A DNA stretch of 64,000 nt from Dictyostelium discoideum. Its lineage: Eukaryota. A program made the position numbers and the translations under genes. Below the pieces are notes generated by a model. The model made no database searches and was not told where the DNA came from. It was given only the letters and a program-made list of their open reading frames with translations. Positions within the stretch are counted from its first letter, which is position 1. The number at the start of each line of letters is the position of its first letter. The DNA lies in assembly GCA_000004695.1 (NCBI GenBank), contig CM000151.3:1920001-1984000 (forward strand). The letters are read 5' to 3'. Of the stretch, positions 5,752 to 60,006 are shown in pieces.

Positions 5752-19413
<13,662 letters not shown>

Positions 19414-19653: not shown

Positions 19654-19698
19654 ATGATTTCTAAATTATATACATATTTAAGTAAAATGGATAGTCAC

Positions 19699-19759
<61 letters not shown>

Positions 19760-22329
19760 TAGAAATTGAATTGCATGAGAAATTATTTTGGAAAATTTTT
19801 AGAAATAAATATATATTTAATGAGATATTCTCAAATTTTCAATGTTTAGGAATTAATAAATTTAGATATTATGATATTATTCATATATCATGGATGTTGG
19901 ATAATGGGTATATAAATTTAATTAAAGATAAAATTGAATTTCAAAAACATATAGTTTTTACAACTCATTTACCATCAGTAATTCAAAATAAATTTAGTGA
20001 ATCAAATTTATTTTTAAAATCAATGGATGAAACATTTGAAAGATTATTTAAAACATTTAAAGATAACAAAAATATAAATAATTTAGATGGGGACTGTACA
20101 AATAATTTAGTTTATAAATTTTATTTAAATTTATTTTCAGAAAATTATGAAAAAAACCATCAATTTGATTATTCTAATTTATTATTAATTTCAACGAGAT
20201 GTGGTAATTTAATTGTAAATAAAATTTTATATAAAAAAGGTTTTGAACAAGATACTTTAAAAAATAAAACTTTCGGAATAAAGTTATTTGAAAGTATAAT
20301 GAAATCAAATTCTTTAAAAATGATTAATTCATTTTTATCAACTTCATCATCATCATCTATAATAAAAGATAATAAAATATTTGATTACTATAAGAATCAA
20401 AATTTCAAAAATGATTTTAAACCAAATATTTATAAATTATTAAATGCATTATTTGATACAAATGAAATAACAAATAATTTAAATTTAAATGATAATGATG
20501 TTTTACAAATTATTTTAAAAGCAATCATTGAAAAATACTTTCCATTTAGTGATCCATTTTATTCAAATTTCAAATTAAATAATTTAATTGAATCAATTTT
20601 ATTTGCAATTAAAATAAAAATAATTAATGGTGATTATAAAATTAACAATTGTTCCTATGACCAAAATGAAATTAATTTAATTGATTTTTCAAATTCAATA
20701 AAATTAAAATATAATTCATTATTAAAATTATCATTAAGAAAATTAATTAATTTTAATAATAATGAATTTAATAATGAATTTAAATTATTATTAGAAATTT
20801 ATTTATTTAAAATAATGAAAAAACCAAGTCCACCATTTTTATATTATTTAAAATATTATGATAATATAAATATATATGATTATAATGAAAGTGATGAAAA
20901 ACTAAAAGAAAATGTTAAATTTATAAAAATATTGGTTGATAATAAATATGATAGTATTTTACCAAGATTTAAAAGATCAGTTTCAAAATCAAAATTATTT
21001 AGACAATCATTAAAACATGGTAATTATAATTTATTATTATATTCAGATTTAAATCAAATTAATCAAGAAACCTATAAAGAATGTGTATATGGTTTATATG
21101 AGAGAAAATCAAAAACTCCAAAATTATTATTCAAACATTGTAAAAATAATAGAGAAAAGCAATTTAAATTCTTAGAGGAAATTTCAAAGAATCAAATTAA
21201 AATTCATCCAATAACAATGATTTGTATGTTAATTGAATTACAAGATATTGAATTAATAGAATTTTATTTAAAATCAGTTGAATCAATTGATAAATGGTTA
21301 AAAGAGGTAAATCCAACACCTACAATTTCAATTGCACATTCAATTGAAACTATTGAAATGTTAGATTATTGTTTTAATAAATTTAATAATCATTTCAATA
21401 GAATTTCAATATCATGTTGGTATGAATATGGTCGTATTAATTTAATTAAAAGATATACTGATTTACGAATTCAATCAAATTGTGTCAATGATTCCATTAA
21501 AAATATACTATTACCATTTGATTCAGAATTCTTACTACATAATAGAAAAACCTCATTCAATGGTAAACTTTTACAAACAATGTGTTGGTTTATTAAAATT
21601 CAAAATTTACAATTATTTAGTGGTAATGGTGATGGGTCGCCATTATCAAATGAAAACGCTGTAAATGAATGTATAGCACTATGTAGAGATAAGAATTTAT
21701 ATTTAAATGAATTGATATTTATATTATCAAAAACAAAAACAATTTTGGATGGAAATAAAATAATTAAAAAAAAAAAATATAGTGATAATATTATCAATAC
21801 TTTAAAAACAAATATTGGTCACAATAGTAGTGGTGAACTTTCTAAATTTTCAGAATTTGTAAATTGGGCTTACTATTCTCAATCGCCATCATATATAGAT
21901 TTAAATAAATTTAAAATCCAACCAATAAATTTATATTACCAAACTAGTGAATTTAATAAATTAATGGGTTATATTGAAAATGAATTTAAAGAGTATACAA
22001 ATGAAAGATTCTTTTCAAGTAAAATTTGTAAACAATTATTATTTGAAATAGGTAGACTTGGTAACATTTCAGGTTTTAGAAATTTATTTAATTATTTACC
22101 TCAATCTATTGATGCAATTAAAGAGGTTTTAACAATTTCAGCACAATATGGAAGAATTAATATATTTCAACAATTGAATGAAATTTTAAATCAAGATCCT
22201 GAAATTACTGAAAATTATTTAGGAATTGATACTCATTTTAAACATTTTCTAATTAATGTAACTACAACAAATAGAAATTTTTATCTTTTATATTACTTTA
22301 ATAATCATTTTTCAATTATATACAAATAA
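19654..22329 (+). CDS. Member A of a lineage-specific paralogous family (891 aa). It is N/K/I-rich, with an N-terminal poly-Asn tract followed by the conserved motif LFWKIFRNKYIFNEIF and an ...ISWML... block.
   Basis: Single long ORF. The N-terminal region aligns with the ORFs at 40673, 43629 and 56953 ([LI][FY][FW]K[IV]F[RHK]N.[FY] ... [SK][WL][YW]M[LI]). C-terminal segments weakly resemble degenerate ankyrin-like repeats (LTISAQYGRINIFQQLNEIL). Confidence 0.6.
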
Positions 22330-29613: not shown

Positions 29614-31836
<2,223 letters not shown>

Positions 31837-32611
31837 TTTTAATTTTTTAAAAAAAAATATATTTTTGTGATTAAAAAAACAAAAAATATAATAAATTAAA
31901 TGATTTCTGTTATTAGAAAAATAATTAAAAAAAAAAAAAAAAAAAAAAGAAAAGAGAGAAAAGAAAAAAATGAATAGAAAAAGTAAAAAAATATTAATAT
32001 TAATCTTTTTTAAAAAAAATAATAATAATAATAATAAAAAGAAGAAAAAAAGGAAAGAAAAGAACAAAAAAAATAAAAAATTATTAATATTAATCTTTTA
32101 TTTTTTAAAAAAAAAAAATAAAAAAAAAATAAAAAAATATTATAATTATAAATGTGTATTATTTAATTGTTCTTTTTATAGACATAAATCACCTCCTCAA
32201 AACTCACACACACACTTTGATAAATAAAAACAAATAATTCTCAACGCCATAAACATCTTTTTTTTCAATAAAAATGAAATATGTTGTGACAGAATTTATA
32301 TAAAATGTTTTATTTTTAATTTATATCAACTTAAACCATAAAAAAATTTAAAAAAAAAAAAAAGAGCAAATTTGGGGTTTGGTATACAAAATTGGAAAAA
32401 AAAACAAAAAAAAACAATTAAATGAAACACATTTTCATAAATTGTTGTGTATATATATATTTTTTATTCTCTTACATGAGATATATATATATATATATTT
32501 TTTTTTATAAAATTTATTTATTTATGTTTATATATTTTTTATTTTTTTTTTATTTTTTTTATTTTTTTTTTTTTTTCTTTAAAACAAACTTGAGAAATTT
32601 AATAAATAATT

Positions 32612-43628: not shown

Positions 43629-43631
<3 letters not shown>

Positions 43632-43694
43632 AATAATGAAGACACTATTAACAATAATAGTATTATATTTACCAATAACAACATTATTAATAAT

Positions 43695-43788
<94 letters not shown>

Positions 43789-44501
43789 TTGAAAGCGATA
43801 GTGAAGTTTTATTTTGGAAAGTTTTTCATAATAAATTTTTATTGTATTATATATTGAAATGCGTATCATTGCTACCATTAGAATTTACAGATACTGAATT
43901 GTATTATGTTGGAAATAGATCAAAATTTTCAAATATTAAATCACTTTATTGGATGTTATATCATAAACAATTCACACTTGTAATTGATAAATTAATATCA
44001 AATCAAGTGGTTTATATATCACCAGTTTCAATTGAATATTTAATTGAAAAATGTAAACAACCAACAACAACAACAACAACAACAACTACAACTACAACAA
44101 CTACTACTACTACAATTACAACAAAAACAACAACAACCACAGAAGAACAAGAGAATTTATTAAAACAATATAAACAAATTTATCAACTTTTAATTGAAAA
44201 AAATAAAAAAGAATTACAAAGTGTAAATTTAGTAGATAGCTGTATTAGAAATGATAATACATTAGCATTACCATTATTCTTAACAGATTCAACAAATTTA
44301 ATATTACCACAAACCATTACTACATGTATAAAAAATTGTTCCTCTGATACATTATCATTACTACTTTCATCAATTAATCAAAATTCAACAATACCTTTAT
44401 CAGAATATATAAATCCACGTCAAACAATTTTAGATGCAACTTTTAATGAGCAATATAGAGATGAAATGATTAAATTTATATTGGATTATAAATATAAATC
44501 A

Positions 44502-44587
<86 letters not shown>

Positions 44588-45236
44588 TGATGATGATAAT
44601 GATAATAATAATAATGGTGCAGATGAAAATTTTAAAAAAATATTTGAACCATTAAATAATACAACTATACCAAATTTCTCATTAATAAAATCAAAACAAT
44701 TAAAGTTAAGAATGGTTAAAGAATTTTCAAATTTCTTTTACTTGGATCCAATTTCACCAAGTTATCAAATTTTATCACAATCAATTGAAGAATGTAAATC
44801 ATATATTCAATTATTATATATAAAGATTGGTGTTGGTATACCAAAACATTTATTATCAGAAATTAATCAAATTGAAAAGAAATATAATAATACTGATCAA
44901 AATAATAATCAATTAATAATTCAAAAATTGAAAGCAATTGTTATTAAAGAGACTGGATCATTAGATTTCTATTTACAATATTTATTAGAGTATGATCAAA
45001 TCGTTGAAAATCATCAACATAATCAACCACAGAAATTATTAATTTGTAATTACACATTAGCCTTATTTTCATTAAATGGTTTAAAATATTTAGTTAATGA
45101 AAGATATCAAATTACTGATACATCATATCGTAGAGATGAAATTAATAATATCTTTAAAAAATATCGTGGTCAAATTTTAAAAAATCAATCAAAAATTATT
45201 GAATTCTTTCAATTTTATTTTCAAAAATTAAAAATA

Positions 45237-45297
<61 letters not shown>

Positions 45298-45894
45298 GTA
45301 ATAATAATAGTAATAATAATAATAATAATATAAATAATAATAAAAGAAATTCAGATATATTAGGATTAAAAAAATGGGAAGATATTATTAAATTTTTAGT
45401 AATTAATTGTTCAATTGAAACATTGAATGAATTAAAAGGAATTGAAGGTTTTCCAATTGAACATTTCTTATGTATTAATCATAGGGATATTCATGATCCA
45501 TTGAAATATGATTGGTTTGTTAAATGTATTTTATTGGAGAATAGAAAGATGCCACATTTCAGATCAACATTACAGTATATTAAAGATCAAGAGAATTTCT
45601 ACCCACATTCATGGCAATTAATAACAAAATTAGAATCGAAATTAAAGATTAAATTAACTGACGAATATTATCATTTATTCATTCATTCAATTTTAACTTA
45701 TGATTTAGAATCAATTTTAAAATTGAATACTTTAAATTTAAAATTTAAAGATCAATCTTATTATCAATCAAATGGTAATGTTGGTTTTGCAAGTTCTAAT
45801 AATTCTGTACTTTTAAATAATGTTGTAAATGATGAAAATTATAATAATAATGACCATATTGATGAATATTATCATTATAATAGTAATAAAAATT

Positions 45895-45978
<84 letters not shown>

Positions 45979-47303
45979 GAAGAAATAACAATAATAATAA
46001 GAATAGATATAGATTTAGAAATAGATATGGTATTGATGTTGGTGCAATGATTATTGGTAGTAGTGGTGGTGGTGGTGGAGGTGGAGGTGGTGGAGGTGGT
46101 GTCAATAATGATGAAGAAAATGAGGATAATAATAGTAATATTGATAATATTAATAATAGTGATGAAAATGATGAAAATTGTGAAATTAAAACTAAATTTA
46201 AAATACCAGAAACATTTGATAAAGTTTTAAATTTATTTACTTATTTTAATATAACACAATTTAAATCATTTACAGCACAAATTTTTAAGAATATGATAAA
46301 GCTATTTTTAAATAGTCCTGGTATTACTTTGGAAGAGTTATCAATGGTACCTTGTAATTTCAATATTTTTAAGAGGGAATCATTATATCTATTATTGACA
46401 TTCATTTATCAAATTAAATTTGAAAAGGTTTGTTTCATAATAAAGAATACTAAATTTCAATTCAATCTAAATGGTATTCAATTCCCACCAGATTCAATCA
46501 TTAATAAATTTCATAGAGATCATCAATTCGATGATAATTCAGTTGATCCAAAAACTTTTAAATTACTAAATTTTAAAAATCATTTACAAATAATTCAAAT
46601 TATAAATTCATTATTTGATTGGATATCATTAGTTACAAATTTAGAACAACAACAACAACAACAACAAAATAATAATGGTAATAATAATTTTTATGATCAA
46701 AAGAAAATGTTAACTTTGTTTTTACCAGTTTTTGATTATTTATATAAGAGATTATTACAAACTAGTGGTACAACATTAAAGGATATTGAAATGGTAATAG
46801 TTTTATTTAAAAAGTTTGGTATTACAATTCAAGAGGATTTCTTTAACATTTTCTTTTATTTCCTTATAAAATCAAATAAATTTAAAAAATATTTCAATTA
46901 TAAATTATCAAATCTATTAACAACACCATATGATTTAATTGATAAAAAGAAACAACCAAAATTAGAGAAATATTTTAATAGTAGTGCTTTCTCTTTTAAT
47001 CAAATTTTAAATACAAATTTTTATGATTTATTCTTAATTTTAAAAAATCATTTAAATTATCAAATTAATTTAATGCCACCACAACCTCAACAACCTCAAC
47101 AACCTCAACAACCTCATCATCAACAACAACAACAACACTACCTTAATTTTAATAATTTCATTGAAAATATTAATAATCATAATAATCATAGTATTCAACA
47201 AATTGAAAATCTTTATCATCAAGCTAATAGTATTCATGCACAATATAATAATAATAATAATAACAACAATAATAATAACAATAATAATAATAATAACAAC
47301 AAC

Positions 47304-47361
<58 letters not shown>

Positions 47362-48170
47362 GTGGTAATGATGAAATTAAAAATAAATTAAATCAAAAGG
47401 ATAGAATGATTGAAGATTTGAAATTTTTATTAGATATTGGATTAATTGGTTTAGCATTAAAATTAATTAGAGAGGAAGAAGTTTTATCAAAGGAAGAATT
47501 GAAACAAGTTATTGAAGAAATCTTAAAATCATTAGTATCGATCATATCAGTTGAAGATTTTGAATGTTTTATTCAAGATGGTTTCATTGAAATTAATGAA
47601 TTATTAAGTTTTGCTATAATAACTTCAAGATTAGATTTAATTAAAATAATTTTAGAAGATTATAATAGTGATGAAATTAATAATCAAAATGATAATGATG
47701 ATTTATTATCAAAAATTTCAAATTATTCATGTATATTTGAAACATGCCAAAATGATATTATCATTTATTTATTTTCAAAATTTAGACAACAATTAACAAA
47801 TTATGATCAAAGTAGATGGCAAGTTATTGATTCAAGTGAACCCGATTTATTCGATATTTCATTCATGAATGGTAATTTAGAGATAACTCAATTATTATTA
47901 AGTTTTTATCCAATTTATAGTGGTAATGGTAATGGTAATGGTAATAATAGTAGTAATAATAATAATAATAATAATAATGGTTGTAGATTTAAATTTAAAG
48001 AAGAAATAATTCAAAAAACTTTATTAAAAGGTTGTTTTCCTATTGTTAAATTTTATTATGAAAATGGTTTCTTCAGTAATCAATTGGTTGATTCAATTAG
48101 ACAATTACCAATTTCAAAGTTTTTACCTTGGTTAACAAATAAAAGAAAATTTGAAGAATTAGAATTTTAA
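43629..48170 (+). CDS. Member C of the LFWKVF-motif paralog family (1513 aa), with multiple poly-Asn tracts, a poly-Thr run, a poly-Gly run and ankyrin-like degenerate repeats near the C-terminus.
   Basis: Single long ORF. N-terminus reads ...SEVLFWKVFHNKFLLYYILKC...KSLYWMLYHKQFTLVIDKL. C-terminal region reads SFMNGNLEITQLLLSFYP / TLLKGCFPIVKFYYENGFF. Confidence 0.65.
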
Positions 48171-48946: not shown

Positions 48947-50274
48947 ATGTCAAAAAATAGTAATGTTACAATAGTTGATCCAGTATTAAGATTAAAACCA
49001 ACAATTGGTGGTGACCCATCTCACCCATTCTCTGATTTTAAAATTGAAATAGGTGTAAATAAAATTGGTAGAGCATCATCAAATAATATATACTTAAAAG
49101 GTGATACTTCAGTTTCAAATTATCATGCTCAACTAGGTAATTATTTATTTTTAAAATAAAAAAAATAAAAAATAAAAAAATAAAAAAATAAAAAATAAAA
49201 AAATAAAAAAATAAAAAAATAAAAAAATAAAAAATAAAATAATTCTAACTCATTTATTTATATAATTTATGTGTATATTTTTTTTTAGTATTTAATGGAG
49301 CATTCTTTTTAATTAAAGATTTAAATAGTTTAAATAAAACTATGGTTCAATATAGACCAAATGAAGATACAACTGTCTTAAAACCAAATTTAGAGTATCC
49401 AATTATTAATGGTAGTAAAATTACATTTGGCTCTGCAACAATGACACTCAGTTATATGGAAGTTCATAATAGTAATTATTCAAATGATACAATAAATACA
49501 GAGAAAAATTTTAGTTATACTGATAATAGATTAGTACCTCCATCACCACCTGAACCAAAACAACAACAACAACAACAGCAACAACAAATTAATAAACCAC
49601 AACCAATACAAAATATAAACACCACAACCACAACCACAACTACTACAACTACAACCACAGATACAGGTGCATCACTCCTATCTCCAAAATCATCAAATAA
49701 CAACAACAACAACAGCAACAACAACAGCAATACAACCACCACAACTTCATCATCTCCATCTCACCTTTTAACCACCTCTAATTCTGAAATAAAAGATATT
49801 GAAAATAATGTACACCATATAAATAGCAATAACAAAAGAAAACAAGAAGATGAAAATGTTGATAGTTTAGGTAGTTTTGACGACGATGGCAATCTGGTAA
49901 CTGTTAAAAAGCACAAATTAAATAAAATAATAGATGAAGAACACGAAGAACATGAAGAGTATGAACAAAAAGAACTAAAAGAAAAAGAAAAAGAAAAAGA
50001 AAAAGAAAAAGAAAAGAAAAAAGAAATTAAAAAGACAGTATCAAAATATAATATAGAAATTGAAGATGATTTAGAAATGGAGGAAGATGAAAAATTAAAT
50101 AACAATCAAAGTTATGATAGAACTGAACAACAAAATGATAATAATAATGATAATGATAATATTGATAATATGATGGACGAAGAGGATGATGAAATTTCTT
50201 CATCACCTCAACCAATTAGAAAAGAAAATAAAATAGTTAAAAACGATAAAAAAAAAGAGAAAAAAGAAGAAACC

Positions 50275-50347
<73 letters not shown>

Positions 50348-51369
50348 GTATTAGTAATACAAGTCAAAATAGTATAACAAGTCAACAAAGTGATATTAGC
50401 AATAATAGTAGTGGAAGTGTTTGTAAAAGGGGTAAAAGAGGTGCTGGAAAAGTAAATGATGTATATATCAATAATATAGGTATTGATATTGTAAATAGTA
50501 AAAGAAAAACATCAAAACCTGAAAGATTAGAAGAACAAATTTTACAAAAATCATCTTCATCATTATCTTCATCTTCTTCATTACCCTCGTCATCTTCATC
50601 CTCCTCATCATCATCTTCATTTGATAATAAAGAGAAAGAAGAAATAATTAATAAATCACCAAAAAAACAACAAACACCAAAAACAACAACAACAACAACA
50701 AAAACAACTACAAAAACAACATCATCAACAGCAAAAGCAAATTCAAATATAAAGATATTATTTTCAATGTTTTCAGATGATGTTGTAAAGAATTTTGAAT
50801 CAATTTGTTTAAAACTTGGTGGTTCATTAGCAAATAATTCAAAAGAATGTACACATTTGGTTAGTGATGAAATGAAAAGATCGAAAAAGATATTGGAGTG
50901 TATTTCATTTGGTAAAATTATTGTAACCTCTAAATGGTTAAAGGAAAGTAAGAAATCGAATCATTTCTTACCAGAATCACAATACCTTTTAAAGGATGAA
51001 AAAGCAGAATCAGAGTGGGATTTTAATTTGGAGAAATCTTTATCAATCGCTAGAAATAGGGTTAGTGGTAGTGCTGCTTTAAAACCGTTGTTTAATAATA
51101 TGTTGTTTTTCATAACAAAGAATTCAATACCACCAAAGGAATTCCTTAAAGAGATTATTGAAATCAATGGTGGTAATTTATTGGATGATATCAAAGATGC
51201 TGAGAACCAAGAGAATCAAAAAAAAATTATAGCCGTAATTGCAAATGCTGATAAAGATAAAAGGTCTTTAAAAAAATGGTCTGATAATTCTTATAAAGTT
51301 TTAAAAGGAGATTTCATTTTATTATCTGTACTTTCTCAACATTTAATTTATGAAGGTTGTGAAATTTAA
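48947..51369 (+). CDS. FHA domain + C-terminal tandem BRCT domain protein (MDC1-like architecture), two exons (48947..49136, 49289..51369), about 757 aa.
   Basis: FHA motifs span the intron: IGRASSNNIYLKGDTSVSNYHAQL|VFNGAFFLIKDLNSLNKTMVQ. The GTAATT donor at 49137 and ttttttAG acceptor at 49287-49288 are phase-1 consistent. C-terminus: ILFSMFSDD..ICLKLGGSL....CTHLVSDEMKRSKKILECISFGKIIVTSKWL (BRCT1) and LFNNMLFFITKNSIPPKEFLKEIIEINGGNLL (BRCT2). The middle region is low-complexity (poly-T, poly-N, (KE)n, poly-S). Intron 1 carries an (A6-7T)n array. Confidence 0.75.
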
Positions 51370-56535: not shown

Positions 56536-56952
56536 AAAAAAAAAAAAAAAAAATAAAAAAAAATAAAAAAGAAATAAATAATCATTGAAATTTATAATTG
56601 TTTAAACATTAAATTAAAATGAAATAAAATAAATAAAAAAAATAAATTAAAACTTTATTTAAAAAAAAAATACCAATAGGAGGAAGTCGACTTCCTAATG
56701 CTTTTATTTATAATATTATTAGTTTCTAATGTGTCCATAACCTGATAATTGTTTTTTTTTAAAAACTAAATAAAAAAAAAAAAAAAGTTAAAAAATAATA
56801 TCTCAATTTTGAGACATTAAATATCTTTTTTTTAATTTTTTTTATTTTTTTTTTATATTTTTTTTTTTTTGATTATCTTTTTTTTTTTTCATTTTTTATT
56901 TTCAATTTTTTTTTTTTTTTTTTTTTTAAAAACAATAAGAATACATAAAGAA

Positions 56953-57520
56953 ATGAATGAAGATTTAACAAAATTAAAGAGAGAAATCATACAACAACAA
57001 CCAATGGATTATAACGAAATTTTATTTTGGAAAGTTTTTAAAAATAATTTTTTAAAAAGACAAATCTTTTATTTAATGTTGAATATGGATATTGAATTTC
57101 AAAATCATTCAAAATATTTTACTGAAAATAGAATTAAATTTGAGAATGTTTACTCATTTAAATGGATGATAAAAAATAATTTATTAGATTTAATAAAATT
57201 TAAATTGGAAAAAAACCAATATATTGATATTAGAAATAGTGATATCTGTAATTTCATTAAATCTGTCAAAATCCTCGGTGGACCTTCAAAAATAACAAAT
57301 AATCATTTAATTATCTTTAAATTATTAATTAATCAATACCAAATTCTATTTGAAAATCAACATGTTAGATTATTAGTAAGACTTGATAATCATCAATTTT
57401 TACAAATACTATTATCAGAATCAATTAAAAAATTTAAAATCACTTCAAGTCATATTTCATTTTCAATTAAAAAATGTTCAACATTAACATTAGATTTATT
57501 AAATAAATATATAAATAAAG

Positions 57521-57615
<95 letters not shown>

Positions 57616-60006
57616 TATATTAATAATGATAAAGATAAAATAATAACAAATTATATTAAAACCAACTCAATAGAATGGTGCTTACAATATAATAATAATG
57701 ATAAAGATAGTATGATATCATACATTTTGGAAAATAAAATTTTTTTATATAATCAATATGGGTTTCATAATTATTATAAATATGATTTAGAAATTTTTGT
57801 AGTAAATAATGATAAAGCGTACAATTTAAATCAATGTATCCCAACAACAACAGCAACTGAAGAAGTTACAACAATGGTAAAAGAATTGGAAATTAATTCA
57901 AAAATTAGTGATTATGAAAAAATAAAACAATTTATTAAATCAATTGTTAAAAAGGAAAATTCAATGAAATTATATAGTTTTTATTATTTTAAATATTATG
58001 AATTAATTGAAAAGGATGATGATTTTAAAGGTTTTAATGATAGTGGATTCTTAAGATTAAATACAGTTGGAATATTAAATAAAATTGATAATTTAATTAT
58101 TGATTTAAAAAATAATAAAATTAATACCAATGATATTATTAATTTTATTATTAAATTTTTAAATGAAATTAAATGGAATAATTGGAGAAAGAATAAAGTT
58201 TTATTAAATAGAATTAGAATTTTAATATTTGAAATTGTTAATGATAATAAAGAACTATATGAAAAATCAATAACTAAATTAAAACAATCATTAAACATTC
58301 AATTATATAATTTATTTGAATTTCCTAAAGAATGGAATTCGAATATGATTTCATTAACAATTGAACCAATGAAAAGTAATGACATTTTATTAATGGATAA
58401 AAATAATTATTGGTTAAATGCTATTGATCGTATAAATAATAATAATAGTAATAAAAGTATTGCAACACCATTTATAATAGAATTAAAAAAGAAATTATGG
58501 AAAAATTTAATAGCATTTGATCAAGATGAAAAAATAAATAAAATAAACAATAAAAACAATGTTAAAATTAATAATAATAATAATAAAAATAATAATTTTA
58601 ATTTATATGAACGTTTTCAAAATGAAAATAATCAAAAAGAAAATTTAAAATTCAAAAGTACAATTATAAATTTTAGTCAATTTTTAGATATATCAAATCC
58701 ATTTCCCCTTGAAACTGATATAAAAGAATCATTTGAAACTATCTTTGAATCAATTAATGAATTTGATATTACAAAAATTAAATCAGTAATTAATTCAATC
58801 GATATCTTTTCACCACCAATCTCAAGACAATTCTCAAGATCATGGGAAGCATTTATAAAGAAATTTTTTAATAATCAATTTGAATTAATACAAGACGATG
58901 ATCAACTTGAAATTGTAAAGAATTATTTAAAATTTTGGTTAACTTTAAATCCAAAAATCGTTAAAAAAACATCATCATCATCATCAACAACAGCAACAAC
59001 AACAACAGCAATATCAACAAAACCAAAAAGACCAACAAGACCACTACCAAATTATCAATTTATAATTAATTATTTATTTAAAATTTTGATTAAATTTAAA
59101 GGTATTTCAATTTCAGAATTAATTGAAATTAAAAATCAAATTAAAAAGAAATCAATTTTATTGGAAAATTCAGTTTATCATATTGGATTCTATTTAAATT
59201 TTAAATCTTCAAAATATTTTGCATATTTTAAAAATGATTCACTTTTAGGAAATAAAGCAAATTTAAATGATTTAAATAAAATTTGTACATTTGAATTTAT
59301 ATTTGAAGAAGGTAGATCATTTGATGAAATATTAGAAACAATTATAATCAATAGTACATCAATAACTGATAATACAATCAACTACCTAATTAATATAAAT
59401 AGAATTAAATTATTTAGAAAATATTTCCCAATTTATTTAAAAAATGACAGATATTTCATTTTTAATGAACTTTTACAAATTGGTTTTACCCTTTTAAAAA
59501 AGTTAATTAATTATAGTACAAATTTAGAATATATTCAATCCAATTTAAATGAATATTTACAACAAATTGAATTAAAAGTATTGGATAATAAAATTGATAT
59601 TATAATTTTTAAGAAAATTTTAAGTAATATTTTAGGTTATTCAATAATTTTAAATAGAAAAGATATAGTTTCATTCATTATAAATCAATATAATATAAAG
59701 GAAATTTCAAATGATTTTACTTATTGGAATAATTATCCAATGATTGAATATATTTGTGAAAATCATCCAAATGTTGATATTTCAAAACCTTTTCAAACTG
59801 CCTTTGATAATAGTTTACCATTTCTTTCAAAATCAATACCAATCTTTGATATCCTTATAAAGTATAAACCATCTTTATTCATAATTACACCTTATAATTT
59901 AAACAATGCAATTTCATCCAAAGATTATTATATTTTAAATTATTATTTTAAAAAAGGTTATTTACATAAAGATGAAGATGGTAATTTTAAATTAATAAAA
60001 AATTAA
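56953..60006 (+). CDS. Member D of the LFWKVF-motif paralog family (about 1017 aa).
   Basis: The ORF reported from 56869 begins in a poly-T tract (MIIFFFFHFLF...). The realistic start is the in-frame ATG at 56953 (MNEDLTKLKREIIQQQPMDYNEILFWKVFKNNFLKRQIFYLM...FKWMIKNNLLDLIKFKL). There is an (AAT)n poly-N tract at 57530-57615. Confidence 0.65.

Follow-up and report, generated by a model that had tools for sequence, protein, structure and literature searches.

A Dictyostelium discoideum gene that probably encodes an MDC1-family scaffold for DNA-damage chromatin

In animals, MDC1 is the central reader of γH2AX, and a gene of the social amoeba Dictyostelium discoideum raises the question of whether a protein of this family also exists outside metazoa. 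The gene lies in a 64,000-nucleotide stretch of the D. discoideum genome (the window; GenBank assembly GCA_000004695.1, contig CM000151.3, positions 1,920,001 to 1,984,000 of the forward strand). A first-pass annotation of the sequence described an FHA domain, a long disordered linker, and tandem BRCT repeats (tBRCT), and proposed an MDC1-like mediator. From sequence comparisons and structural modeling, we consider it likely, with a probability of about 0.8, that the gene encodes a social-amoeba MDC1-family scaffold that reads DNA-damage chromatin. Coordinates are positions in the window, and all features are on the + strand.

Gene structure and conserved domains

The gene has two exons, and its spliced product contains 756 amino acids (ATG at 48947, TAA ending at 51369). 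Exon 1 (48947–49136), made up of codons 1–63 and the first nucleotide of codon 64, specifies the N-terminal half of the FHA domain with G41-R42 (codons 49067–49072) and S57/H60 (codons 49115–49126). It is followed by an A/T-rich intron of 152 nt (49137–49288) with GT..AG ends and (A6-7T)n repeats. Exon 2 (49289–51369) runs from the remainder of codon 64 to the stop codon and covers the second half of the FHA together with the linker and the tBRCT. Because codon 64 is split G/TA, the intron is in phase 1; it falls inside the FHA, between YHAQL and VFNG. The start codon is found in the context aaaaaaaATG, and the orthologues begin with the same MSKN...VDPVL. The splice junction is supported by the D. 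citrinum orthologue, which is collinear across it ("...SNYHAQLIFNGTFFLIKDL..."). Pfam detected three domains (FHA, RTT107_BRCT_5, and BRCT_2); since all three exceed their gathering scores, the matches are far beyond chance. The Pfam FHA match, the split codon, and the orthologue collinearity together confirm the annotated FHA split by a phase-1 intron.

The FHA coding region, which is interrupted by the intron, spans 49061–49431. Pfam placed the domain at residues 39–111 (E = 1.5e-10; 41.8 bits versus a cut-off of 20.7), and the fold probably extends over about residues 10–120. The phosphothreonine-pocket residues G41, R42, S57, H60, N79, and T81 are invariant in six dictyostelid sequences. 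In a PDB search with the FHA profile, the best eukaryotic structure was MDC1 (6.2e-6, positions 7–85 aligned). Xrs2 was matched weakly (E = 0.061), and the human nibrin FHA was absent from the matches. The match to MDC1 was no stronger than those to generic bacterial FHAs.

At the C terminus, BRCT repeat 1 is encoded at 50749–50991 (residues about 551–631) and BRCT repeat 2 at 51085–51351 (residues 663–751). Pfam matched the first as RTT107_BRCT_5 (residues 536–631, E = 1.8e-10) and the second as BRCT_2 (residues 663–751, E = 4.2e-15), and the C-terminal 216 residues were a strong match to tandem BRCTs of the γH2AX-binding group. When the tBRCT was used as a single sequence to search the PDB, the matches were PTIP BRCT5/6 (3.5e-23), MDC1 (3.5e-16), Brc1 (1.2e-12), and Mdb1 (3.6e-8), all of which align to the whole tandem. 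With a profile of the dictyostelid tBRCTs, these values became 4.3e-42, 1.5e-26, 4.8e-22, and 7.6e-20, respectively, followed by a gap down to SLF1 at 1e-10; Nibrin scored 1.4e-4 through one BRCT only.

Structure prediction gave a similar picture. AF2 run on the tBRCT sequence alone yielded a pLDDT of 33, and an alignment of seven orthologues was used in its place, giving a model with a pLDDT of 86 and a pTM of 0.82. The geometry of this model is canonical, with S556 at β1 and K597 at the start of α2. The best five Foldseek matches were PTIP-γH2AX, MDC1(-γH2AX), Mdb1-γH2A, Brc1-γH2A, and MCPH1-γH2AX, with PTIP BRCT5-BRCT6 (PDB 3sqd, a γH2AX complex) scoring 7.5e-18 with a TM of 0.82. Sequence and predicted structure both place the tBRCT in a group in which every member with a solved structure is a binder of the H2A(X) C-terminal SQ tail in its phosphorylated form. 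Pfam, the PDB search, AF2, and Foldseek all agree with the C-terminal tandem BRCT of the first-pass annotation.

Human MDC1 contacts γH2AX through T1898, R1932, R1933, and K1936 (Wei et al., 2014; PMC4013092). The amoeba protein shares with metazoan MDC1 the equivalents of T1898, R1933, and K1936, with a basic residue where human MDC1 has R1932; all four residues lie in BRCT repeat 1. S556 (50764–50766) and K597 (50887–50889) form the predicted phosphoserine pocket, and R594, encoded next to K593 (50875–50880 for the two), is the predicted carboxylate binder. Dictyostelids show no variation at S556, R594, or K597, so that the phosphopeptide-binding S/K residues, which the annotation had proposed to check, are kept. 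In an alignment of 42 sequences, S556 aligns with the Thr of an F-T-G motif (20/22 MDC1-type and 12/13 PTIP-type sequences), and R594 and K597 line up with an R and a K that never vary. Dictyostelids, like 21 of the 22 MDC1-type sequences, have a basic residue at position 593, where PTIP-type sequences have T, V, L, or I. A HMMER pairwise alignment to MDC1 had suggested S559 as the T1898 equivalent; S556 was preferred because of its conservation in orthologues, the predicted end of β1, and the multi-family alignment.

Relationship to MDC1 and PTIP

In a search of 1.84 billion proteins, the best matches were dictyostelid orthologues carrying both domains. An FHA with a C-terminal tBRCT was present in 31 of the 150 matches listed, 26 of them non-dictyostelid, and every named protein among these listed matches was a metazoan MDC1. 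The orthologues of D. purpureum, P. violaceum, and T. lacteum are named "Mediator of DNA damage checkpoint protein 1" in UniProt, and D. discoideum EAL70982 and P. pallidum EFA74881 have been described as MDC1/Mdb1 homologues with an FHA and a tBRCT (Wei et al., 2014; PMC4013092). The gene studied here is almost certainly EAL70982. Since the study of Wei et al. and the UniProt orthologue names already give MDC1, our finding is not new: the MDC1-type identity of the gene was known, and the finding is correct yet ordinary. Nor would an MDC1-type mediator outside metazoa be notable in itself, as the annotation had held, for S. pombe Mdb1, plant BCP4, and the D. discoideum FHA-tBRCT protein have all been published. 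A 2026 preprint describes a Dictyostelium "Ki-67 homologue", but this is the product of another gene (Q54WT0, 1032 aa).

The amoeba protein has the layout of metazoan MDC1s, including human MDC1, Drosophila MU2, and the proteins of sponges and other invertebrates: an FHA, a long disordered linker, and a C-terminal tBRCT. Its length is similar to those of short invertebrate MDC1s, such as a 503-aa sponge protein. An N-terminal FHA and a C-terminal tBRCT are common to all 119 metazoan MDC1s surveyed, and this pair, not the repeats, is the common denominator of MDC1 (Lorkovic et al., PMC11014961). The γH2AX-reader type of BRCT pair, the invariant contact residues, and MDC1 as the best eukaryotic match of the FHA therefore support an MDC1-like reading.

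One might instead suppose that the protein is of the PTIP/Brc1/Rtt107 type, or that a generic FHA was fused independently in Amoebozoa to an ancestral, PTIP-like BRCT pair that reads γH2AX, and that it is not a true MDC1 orthologue. Such a protein would still read γH2AX, and its downstream role would resemble that of PTIP/Brc1, as a scaffold in replication stress and repair. BRCT5-BRCT6 of PTIP/PAXIP1 is the top match to the amoeba BRCT pair both in structure and in sequence, where it exceeds MDC1 by 85.7 to 62.9 bits with the single sequence and by 147 to 96 bits with the profile. The amoeba tBRCT is also less diverged from PTIP than is the tBRCT of human MDC1, and its first repeat is the one matched by RTT107_BRCT_5. 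With HMMs built from equal-sized sets, the amoeba tBRCT scored 165 bits for the PTIP type versus 148 bits for the MDC1 type (a comparison on unequal sets, 22 versus 2, was discarded). The FHA, being no nearer to MDC1 than to bacterial FHAs, would fit a fusion as well, and there is a precedent in plants, whose MDC1 and PAXIP1 counterparts are argued to have arisen independently from tBRCT ancestors (Lorkovic et al., PMC11014961).

However, PTIP/PAXIP1 combines six BRCTs with a long Q-rich region and lacks an FHA (PMC11014961), whereas the amoeba protein has an FHA and only two BRCTs. It lacks the N-terminal BRCT pairs and the long Q-rich region, its sole Q run being a 9-residue polyQ. This architecture rules out membership of PTIP itself, and the combination that the amoeba protein does have is the one found in all of the surveyed metazoan MDC1s. 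Position 593 is basic, as in the MDC1 type and unlike the T/V of PTIP, and the Acytostelium orthologue scored higher with the MDC1-type HMM than with the PTIP-type HMM. In a neighbor-joining tree of tBRCTs, built from simple distances and a limited set of taxa, PTIP formed a separate clade without the dictyostelids in 79% of bootstraps. The dictyostelids fell among the MDC1-type sequences, beside sponge and rotifer, although with this limited sampling the MDC1 type was not monophyletic (8%). On this evidence, we consider a PTIP-type protein or an independent fusion unlikely.

Two further groups of γH2A(X) readers differ from the amoeba protein in architecture. Mdb1 and Brc1 of S. pombe belong to the same tBRCT group and keep the γH2A-binding residues, but Mdb1 is without a recognizable FHA (PMC4013092) and Brc1 has six BRCTs. 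The plant proteins BCP4/BCP3 (XIP), which are functional counterparts of MDC1, carry a C-terminal γH2A.X-binding tBRCT after a disordered region with docking motifs. They have TQx-φ, SQSQ, DWD, and DTQ motifs and no FHA, the reverse of the amoeba protein (PMC11014961).

The probable H2AX ligand and the linker

A published cloning primer, once decoded, gives AEGSSQIY* as the C terminus of D. discoideum H2AX, and a damage-induced γH2AX signal and foci have been reported in Dictyostelium. Certain details differ from the human complex. The pocket Ser is followed by Met in the amoeba protein, and by Met or Leu across dictyostelids, in place of the Gly usual in metazoan MDC1, and the +2 residue of H2AX is Ile, versus Glu in the human complex. 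These differences would be compatible with a phosphopeptide scaffold that binds a ligand other than γH2AX, for instance an internal phospho-motif or the pS-x-x-(Y/F)-COOH end of some other protein. The function of such a scaffold may fall outside double-strand-break signaling; a mitotic role is one example and has been proposed for Mdb1 and MDC1-TOPBP1, and spindle functions are described for Mdb1 (PMC4013092). This reading is quite improbable, however, as the Arg predicted to bind the carboxylate and the Ser and Lys predicted to contact the phosphate do not vary, the SQIY-COOH end of H2AX fits the pS-x-x-Y-COOH rule, and the five best structural neighbors are all γH2A(X) complexes.

Between the FHA and the tBRCT is a low-complexity linker (49459–50748, residues 121–550) with polyQ, polyT, polyN, (KE)n, and polyS tracts. 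The annotation correctly recognized a long linker of poly-T/N/S and (KE)n but slightly overestimated its length, which is ~430 residues, not about 480. The linker contains 18% N, 14% S, 11% K, 10% E, and 9% T. Hydrophobic residues make up 16% of it, versus ~40% of the FHA and BRCT domains, and their content remains at 7–25% all along residues 121–540. Judging by this composition, rather than by a dedicated predictor, the linker is presumably disordered. No signal for a BRCT or any other domain was found in the linker even at E ≤ 10.

These results also bear on whether the protein could be an Nbs1/Xrs2-type MRN subunit with a displaced BRCT pair or an adjacent BRCT hidden in the linker. Although Nbs1 likewise joins an FHA to a BRCT pair, and Xrs2 (E = 0.061) and nibrin (1.4e-4, one BRCT) appear low in the match lists, this reading is refuted and its likelihood negligible: no BRCT signal adjoins the FHA, the low hydrophobic content leaves no sign of a hidden one, MDC1 and PTIP score >20 orders of magnitude above nibrin, and the BRCT pair, being at the extreme C terminus, leaves no room for C-terminal Mre11- and ATM-binding motifs. 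The annotation's preference for MDC1 over the compact Nbs1 arrangement therefore stands: the C terminus is BRCT, MDC1 is the best eukaryotic match of the FHA, and no BRCT lies beside it.

Metazoan MDC1s contain TQxF, which docks RNF8, whereas neither the linker of the amoeba protein nor that of any dictyostelid orthologue contains this motif. SDTD repeats, which dock NBS1, are found only in vertebrates and PST repeats only in mammals, and the amoeba protein is without both (PMC11014961); S[DE]T[DE] had no match in its linker or those of the dictyostelid orthologues. The linker has no SQ/TQ clusters and just two SQ sites.

Two other stretches recur in dictyostelids. The first (50170–50211, residues 358–371, MMDEEDDEISSSPQ) is an acidic run followed by I/L-x-S-S-P-x-P and is present in most dictyostelid orthologues, although its information content is low and it may recur by chance. 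It is a candidate phospho-docking site. The second (50497–50544, residues 467–482, SKRKTSKPERLEEQIL) is a basic cluster of the form S-K-R-K-S/T-x-K-P-E-R-L-E-E-Q that is conserved in orthologues 60–110 aa upstream of the tBRCT and may serve as a nuclear localization signal or a docking site.

A possible role at damaged chromatin and the age of the architecture

If the protein is an MDC1-family scaffold, it may function as follows. A double-strand break would lead PIKK kinases to phosphorylate the tail of H2AX, which in D. discoideum reads ...GS-S-Q-I-Y-COOH. In the BRCT pair, S556, K597, and the backbone NH of residue 557 would hold the phosphoserine and R594 the free C-terminal carboxylate of H2AX, so that the protein would be tethered at damaged chromatin. 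Through R42, S57, and N79, the FHA could bind a phosphothreonine partner or mediate dimerization, as in human MDC1, and the long acidic/basic linker, once phosphorylated, would recruit downstream factors. Since TQxF and SDTD are absent, any such recruitment must use motifs other than those that dock RNF8 and NBS1. The two dictyostelid linker motifs could be where Nbs1, TopBP1-like, or other repair factors dock in Amoebozoa.

In the literature, we found no functional study of this gene in Dictyostelium, and MDC1 goes unmentioned in a 2021 review of DNA repair in this organism. The practical value of the gene lies in function more than in discovery. Dictyostelium has γH2AX and DNA-PKcs-type signaling, and its genes are easily disrupted; a knockout could reveal the role of an MDC1 that lacks docking motifs for RNF8 and NBS1.

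The evolutionary age of MDC1 is disputed: its origin has been dated to Vertebrata (PMC3969565) and to at least Opisthokonta, perhaps earlier (PMC4013092), and the plant counterparts are held to be independent (PMC11014961). The full FHA-tBRCT architecture is present in Amoebozoa, as confirmed for both domains, which supports an origin before the split of Amoebozoa and Opisthokonta. More tentatively, and with considerable doubt, we suggest that the whole FHA-linker-tBRCT scaffold may predate this split and that each lineage may then have rewired the docking motifs on its own. If so, Dictyostelium would be a genetically simple organism in which to study the function of MDC1 in its minimal, ancestral form.

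Structure and domain layout of the FHA-BRCT gene

The FHA-BRCT gene occupies positions 48947-51369 of the forward strand. Exon 1 starts at the ATG at 48947 and is 190 nt long, ending in CTA G before the GTAATT of the intron; the 152-nt GT..AG intron (49137-49288, phase 1) splits codon 64, and exon 2 begins at 49289, with the last base of its TAA stop codon at 51369. Across the splice junction the 756-aa product reads '...SNYHAQL-V-FNGAFFLIKDLNSLNKT...', and the splice is right, since the Dictyostelium citrinum orthologue is collinear over it. The intron interior (49158-49235) is mostly an (A6-7T)n tandem repeat, ordinary for this genome. The G+C content of the window (13-31%), its poly-Asn and poly-Thr coding runs and its short A/T-rich introns are typical of dictyostelids.

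Three Pfam domains exceeded their curated cut-offs: FHA at residues 39-111 (E = 1.5e-10), RTT107_BRCT_5 at 536-631 (E = 1.8e-10) and BRCT_2 at 663-751 (E = 4.2e-15). The linker between the FHA and the tandem BRCT (tBRCT), residues ~121-550, is rich in N, S, K, E and T, with a hydrophobic share of 16% versus about 40% in the domains, and a domain search of it at E<=10 found nothing, not even a weak BRCT. With these domains, the phase-1 intron and the domain-free linker, the architecture is as described in the first-pass annotation, although the linker, long and biased as stated there, measures roughly 430 aa rather than about 480.

That annotation also considered an MDC1-type mediator outside metazoa notable. 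That D. discoideum has such a gene is correct but not new, having been annotated bioinformatically before: Wei et al. (2014, PMC4013092) named D. discoideum EAL70982 and P. pallidum EFA74881 as apparent homologues of MDC1/Mdb1, with an FHA at the N terminus and a tBRCT at the C terminus. Published non-metazoan counterparts are S. pombe Mdb1 (PMC4013092) and plant BCP4 (PMC11014961). The age of MDC1 is disputed between papers, one dating it to 'Vertebrata' (PMC3969565). A 2021 review of Dictyostelium DNA repair does not mention MDC1, and our literature search turned up no functional study of the Dictyostelium gene.

Relationship to MDC1 and PTIP

We searched a library of 1.84 billion proteins with the FHA and tBRCT fused, omitting the linker to avoid low-complexity matches, and obtained 1780 proteins at E<=1e-3. 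The top five were dictyostelid orthologues containing both domains. The closest protein was that of D. citrinum, 87% identical over the two domains; next came those of D. purpureum, Polysphondylium violaceum, Tieghemostelium lacteum and Acytostelium subglobosum. In UniRef, the proteins of D. purpureum, P. violaceum and T. lacteum are already called MDC1. Among the best 150 of the 1780 matches, 31 combined an N-terminal FHA with a C-terminal tBRCT; wherever named (sponge, ant, millipede, tick, rotifer and shark), these were 'Mediator of DNA damage checkpoint protein 1'. The strongest matches lacking an FHA were PAXIP1.

Judged on raw similarity, the tBRCT lies closer to PTIP than to MDC1. Searched against the PDB as a single sequence, the whole tandem aligned with PTIP BRCT5/6 (3.5e-23), MDC1 (3.5e-16), Brc1 BRCT5/6 (1.2e-12) and Mdb1 (3.6e-8). 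A profile of seven dictyostelid sequences gave the same order (4.3e-42, 1.5e-26, 4.8e-22 for Brc1 and 7.6e-20 for Mdb1), followed after a gap by SLF1 (1e-10), TOPBP1, MCPH1, BARD1 and BRCA1 (1e-7 to 1e-4) and nibrin (1.4e-4). With equal-sized HMMs, the D. discoideum tBRCT scored 165 bits against PTIP-type and 148 bits against MDC1-type sequences, whereas the Acytostelium orthologue preferred the MDC1-type HMM.

In a neighbor-joining tree of tBRCTs, the dictyostelids were monophyletic (100%) and lay among paraphyletic MDC1-type sequences, beside sponge and rotifer, while the PTIP clade (79%) excluded them. This placement, together with the FHA, the residue at position 593 (see below) and the absence of further BRCTs, favors membership in the MDC1 lineage and a tBRCT that has changed slowly. 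Because the tree is a simple one, its support for phylogenetic orthology is tentative.

In a profile search of the PDB, the FHA matched MDC1 at 6.2e-6 (positions 7-85), well ahead of Dun1 (8e-3), Xrs2 (0.061) and Ki-67 (0.96) and on a par with the top-scoring generic FHAs of bacteria (about 5e-6). MDC1 is thus its best eukaryotic match by profile, but this signal alone is not family-specific. As Xrs2 reached only 0.061 and the human nibrin FHA went undetected, the view that the domain is not Nbs1-like held up. Its pocket residues G41, R42, S57, H60, N79 and T81 do not vary among the six dictyostelid sequences aligned.

P0022, the 820-aa product of an intronless gene (L002 1001-3463, on a 3.1-Mb contig of the eukaryotic ENA assembly ERZ25068685), carries FHA, RTT107_BRCT_5 and BRCT_2, lies close to the dictyostelids and sponge in the neighbor-joining tree, and may be another non-metazoan MDC1-type protein. 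Besides its orthologue, Acytostelium subglobosum encodes another tBRCT protein of this type, which is fragmentary (XP_012751180, 167 aa). The 1404-aa Synstelium polycarpum gene model, in which no FHA was detectable, appears to join the orthologue to the gene downstream of it.

The predicted phosphopeptide pocket and its probable ligand

AlphaFold2 with the seven-sequence alignment predicted a confident tandem BRCT (pLDDT 86, pTM 0.82); the single-sequence model (pLDDT 33) was not usable. The best Foldseek matches were PTIP BRCT5/6-gammaH2AX, MDC1 with and without gammaH2AX, Mdb1-gammaH2A, Brc1-gammaH2A and MCPH1-gammaH2AX; all five families nearest to the predicted model are documented gammaH2A(X) readers.

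In human MDC1, T1898 and K1936 contact the phosphate directly, R1932 contacts pSer+2 and R1933 the C-terminal carboxylate (Wei et al., PMC4013092). We aligned the seven dictyostelid tBRCTs with 22 FHA-bearing (MDC1-type) and 13 PTIP-type sequences. S556, immediately after predicted strand beta1, falls in the F-T-G column, where T occupies 20/22 MDC1-type and 12/13 PTIP-type sequences; the R594 and K597 columns are invariant R and K. All three pocket residues are invariant among dictyostelids. HMMER pairwise alignment had offered S559 as the T1898 equivalent, which we rejected because S559 is not conserved and S556 is. The residue following the pocket Ser/Thr, usually Gly, is Met or Leu in the dictyostelids other than Acytostelium, which keeps the Gly. 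Known BRCT complexes use a backbone NH from this position, so the substitution is not necessarily important. Position 593 (K593, 50875-50877; human R1932) is basic in dictyostelids (K in six of seven) and R in 21/22 MDC1-type sequences, but T/V/L/I in PTIP-type tBRCTs. It therefore separates the two groups in this alignment and may offer a simple way of telling the families apart.

The probable ligand exists in this organism. The published D. discoideum h2AX reverse cloning primer (Dubin et al., PMC2995078) decodes to ...AEGSSQIY-stop, a tail of the pS-x-x-Y-COOH form read by this BRCT group; its +2 residue is Ile rather than Glu. An antibody against human gammaH2AX is reported to reveal both gammaH2AX signal and foci after DNA damage in Dictyostelium (PMC5087659; PMC8758696). 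We infer that the tBRCT would tether the protein to phosphorylated H2AX, while the FHA would bind a phosphothreonine partner or self-associate and the linker would recruit effectors.

No TQxF or SDTD motif occurs in the linker of any dictyostelid orthologue compared, and any coupling to RNF8-like or Nbs1 partners must therefore work in another way. Two motifs recur in the same order among the orthologues in an otherwise unalignable linker: an acidic run followed by I/L-x-S-S-P-x-P (50170-50211, residues 358-371) and S-K-R-K-S/T-x-K-P-E-R-L-E-E-Q (50497-50544, residues 467-482). These may be docking or nuclear localization elements replacing the metazoan sites, but are candidates only, since low-information motifs can recur by chance in biased sequence.

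Other genes in the window

A single uninterrupted 4143-aa ORF (6982-19413, forward strand) matched no Pfam family at E<=1e-5. In a phmmer search of the PDB it matched human SZT2, a KICSTOR complex subunit (1.3e-27; other SZT2 fragments matched at 8e-9 and 9e-6), and apparently encodes an amoeba SZT2 homologue. An 817-aa ORF (29614-32067, reverse strand) has a C-terminal homeodomain (PF00046, E = 9.7e-7, residues 706-739). Three large forward-strand ORFs, of 891 aa (19654-22329), 1045 aa (56869-60006) and 1513 aa (43629-48170), had no Pfam match at 1e-5. The last lies directly upstream of the FHA-BRCT gene, and poly-Asn and poly-Thr runs are abundant in at least this ORF.
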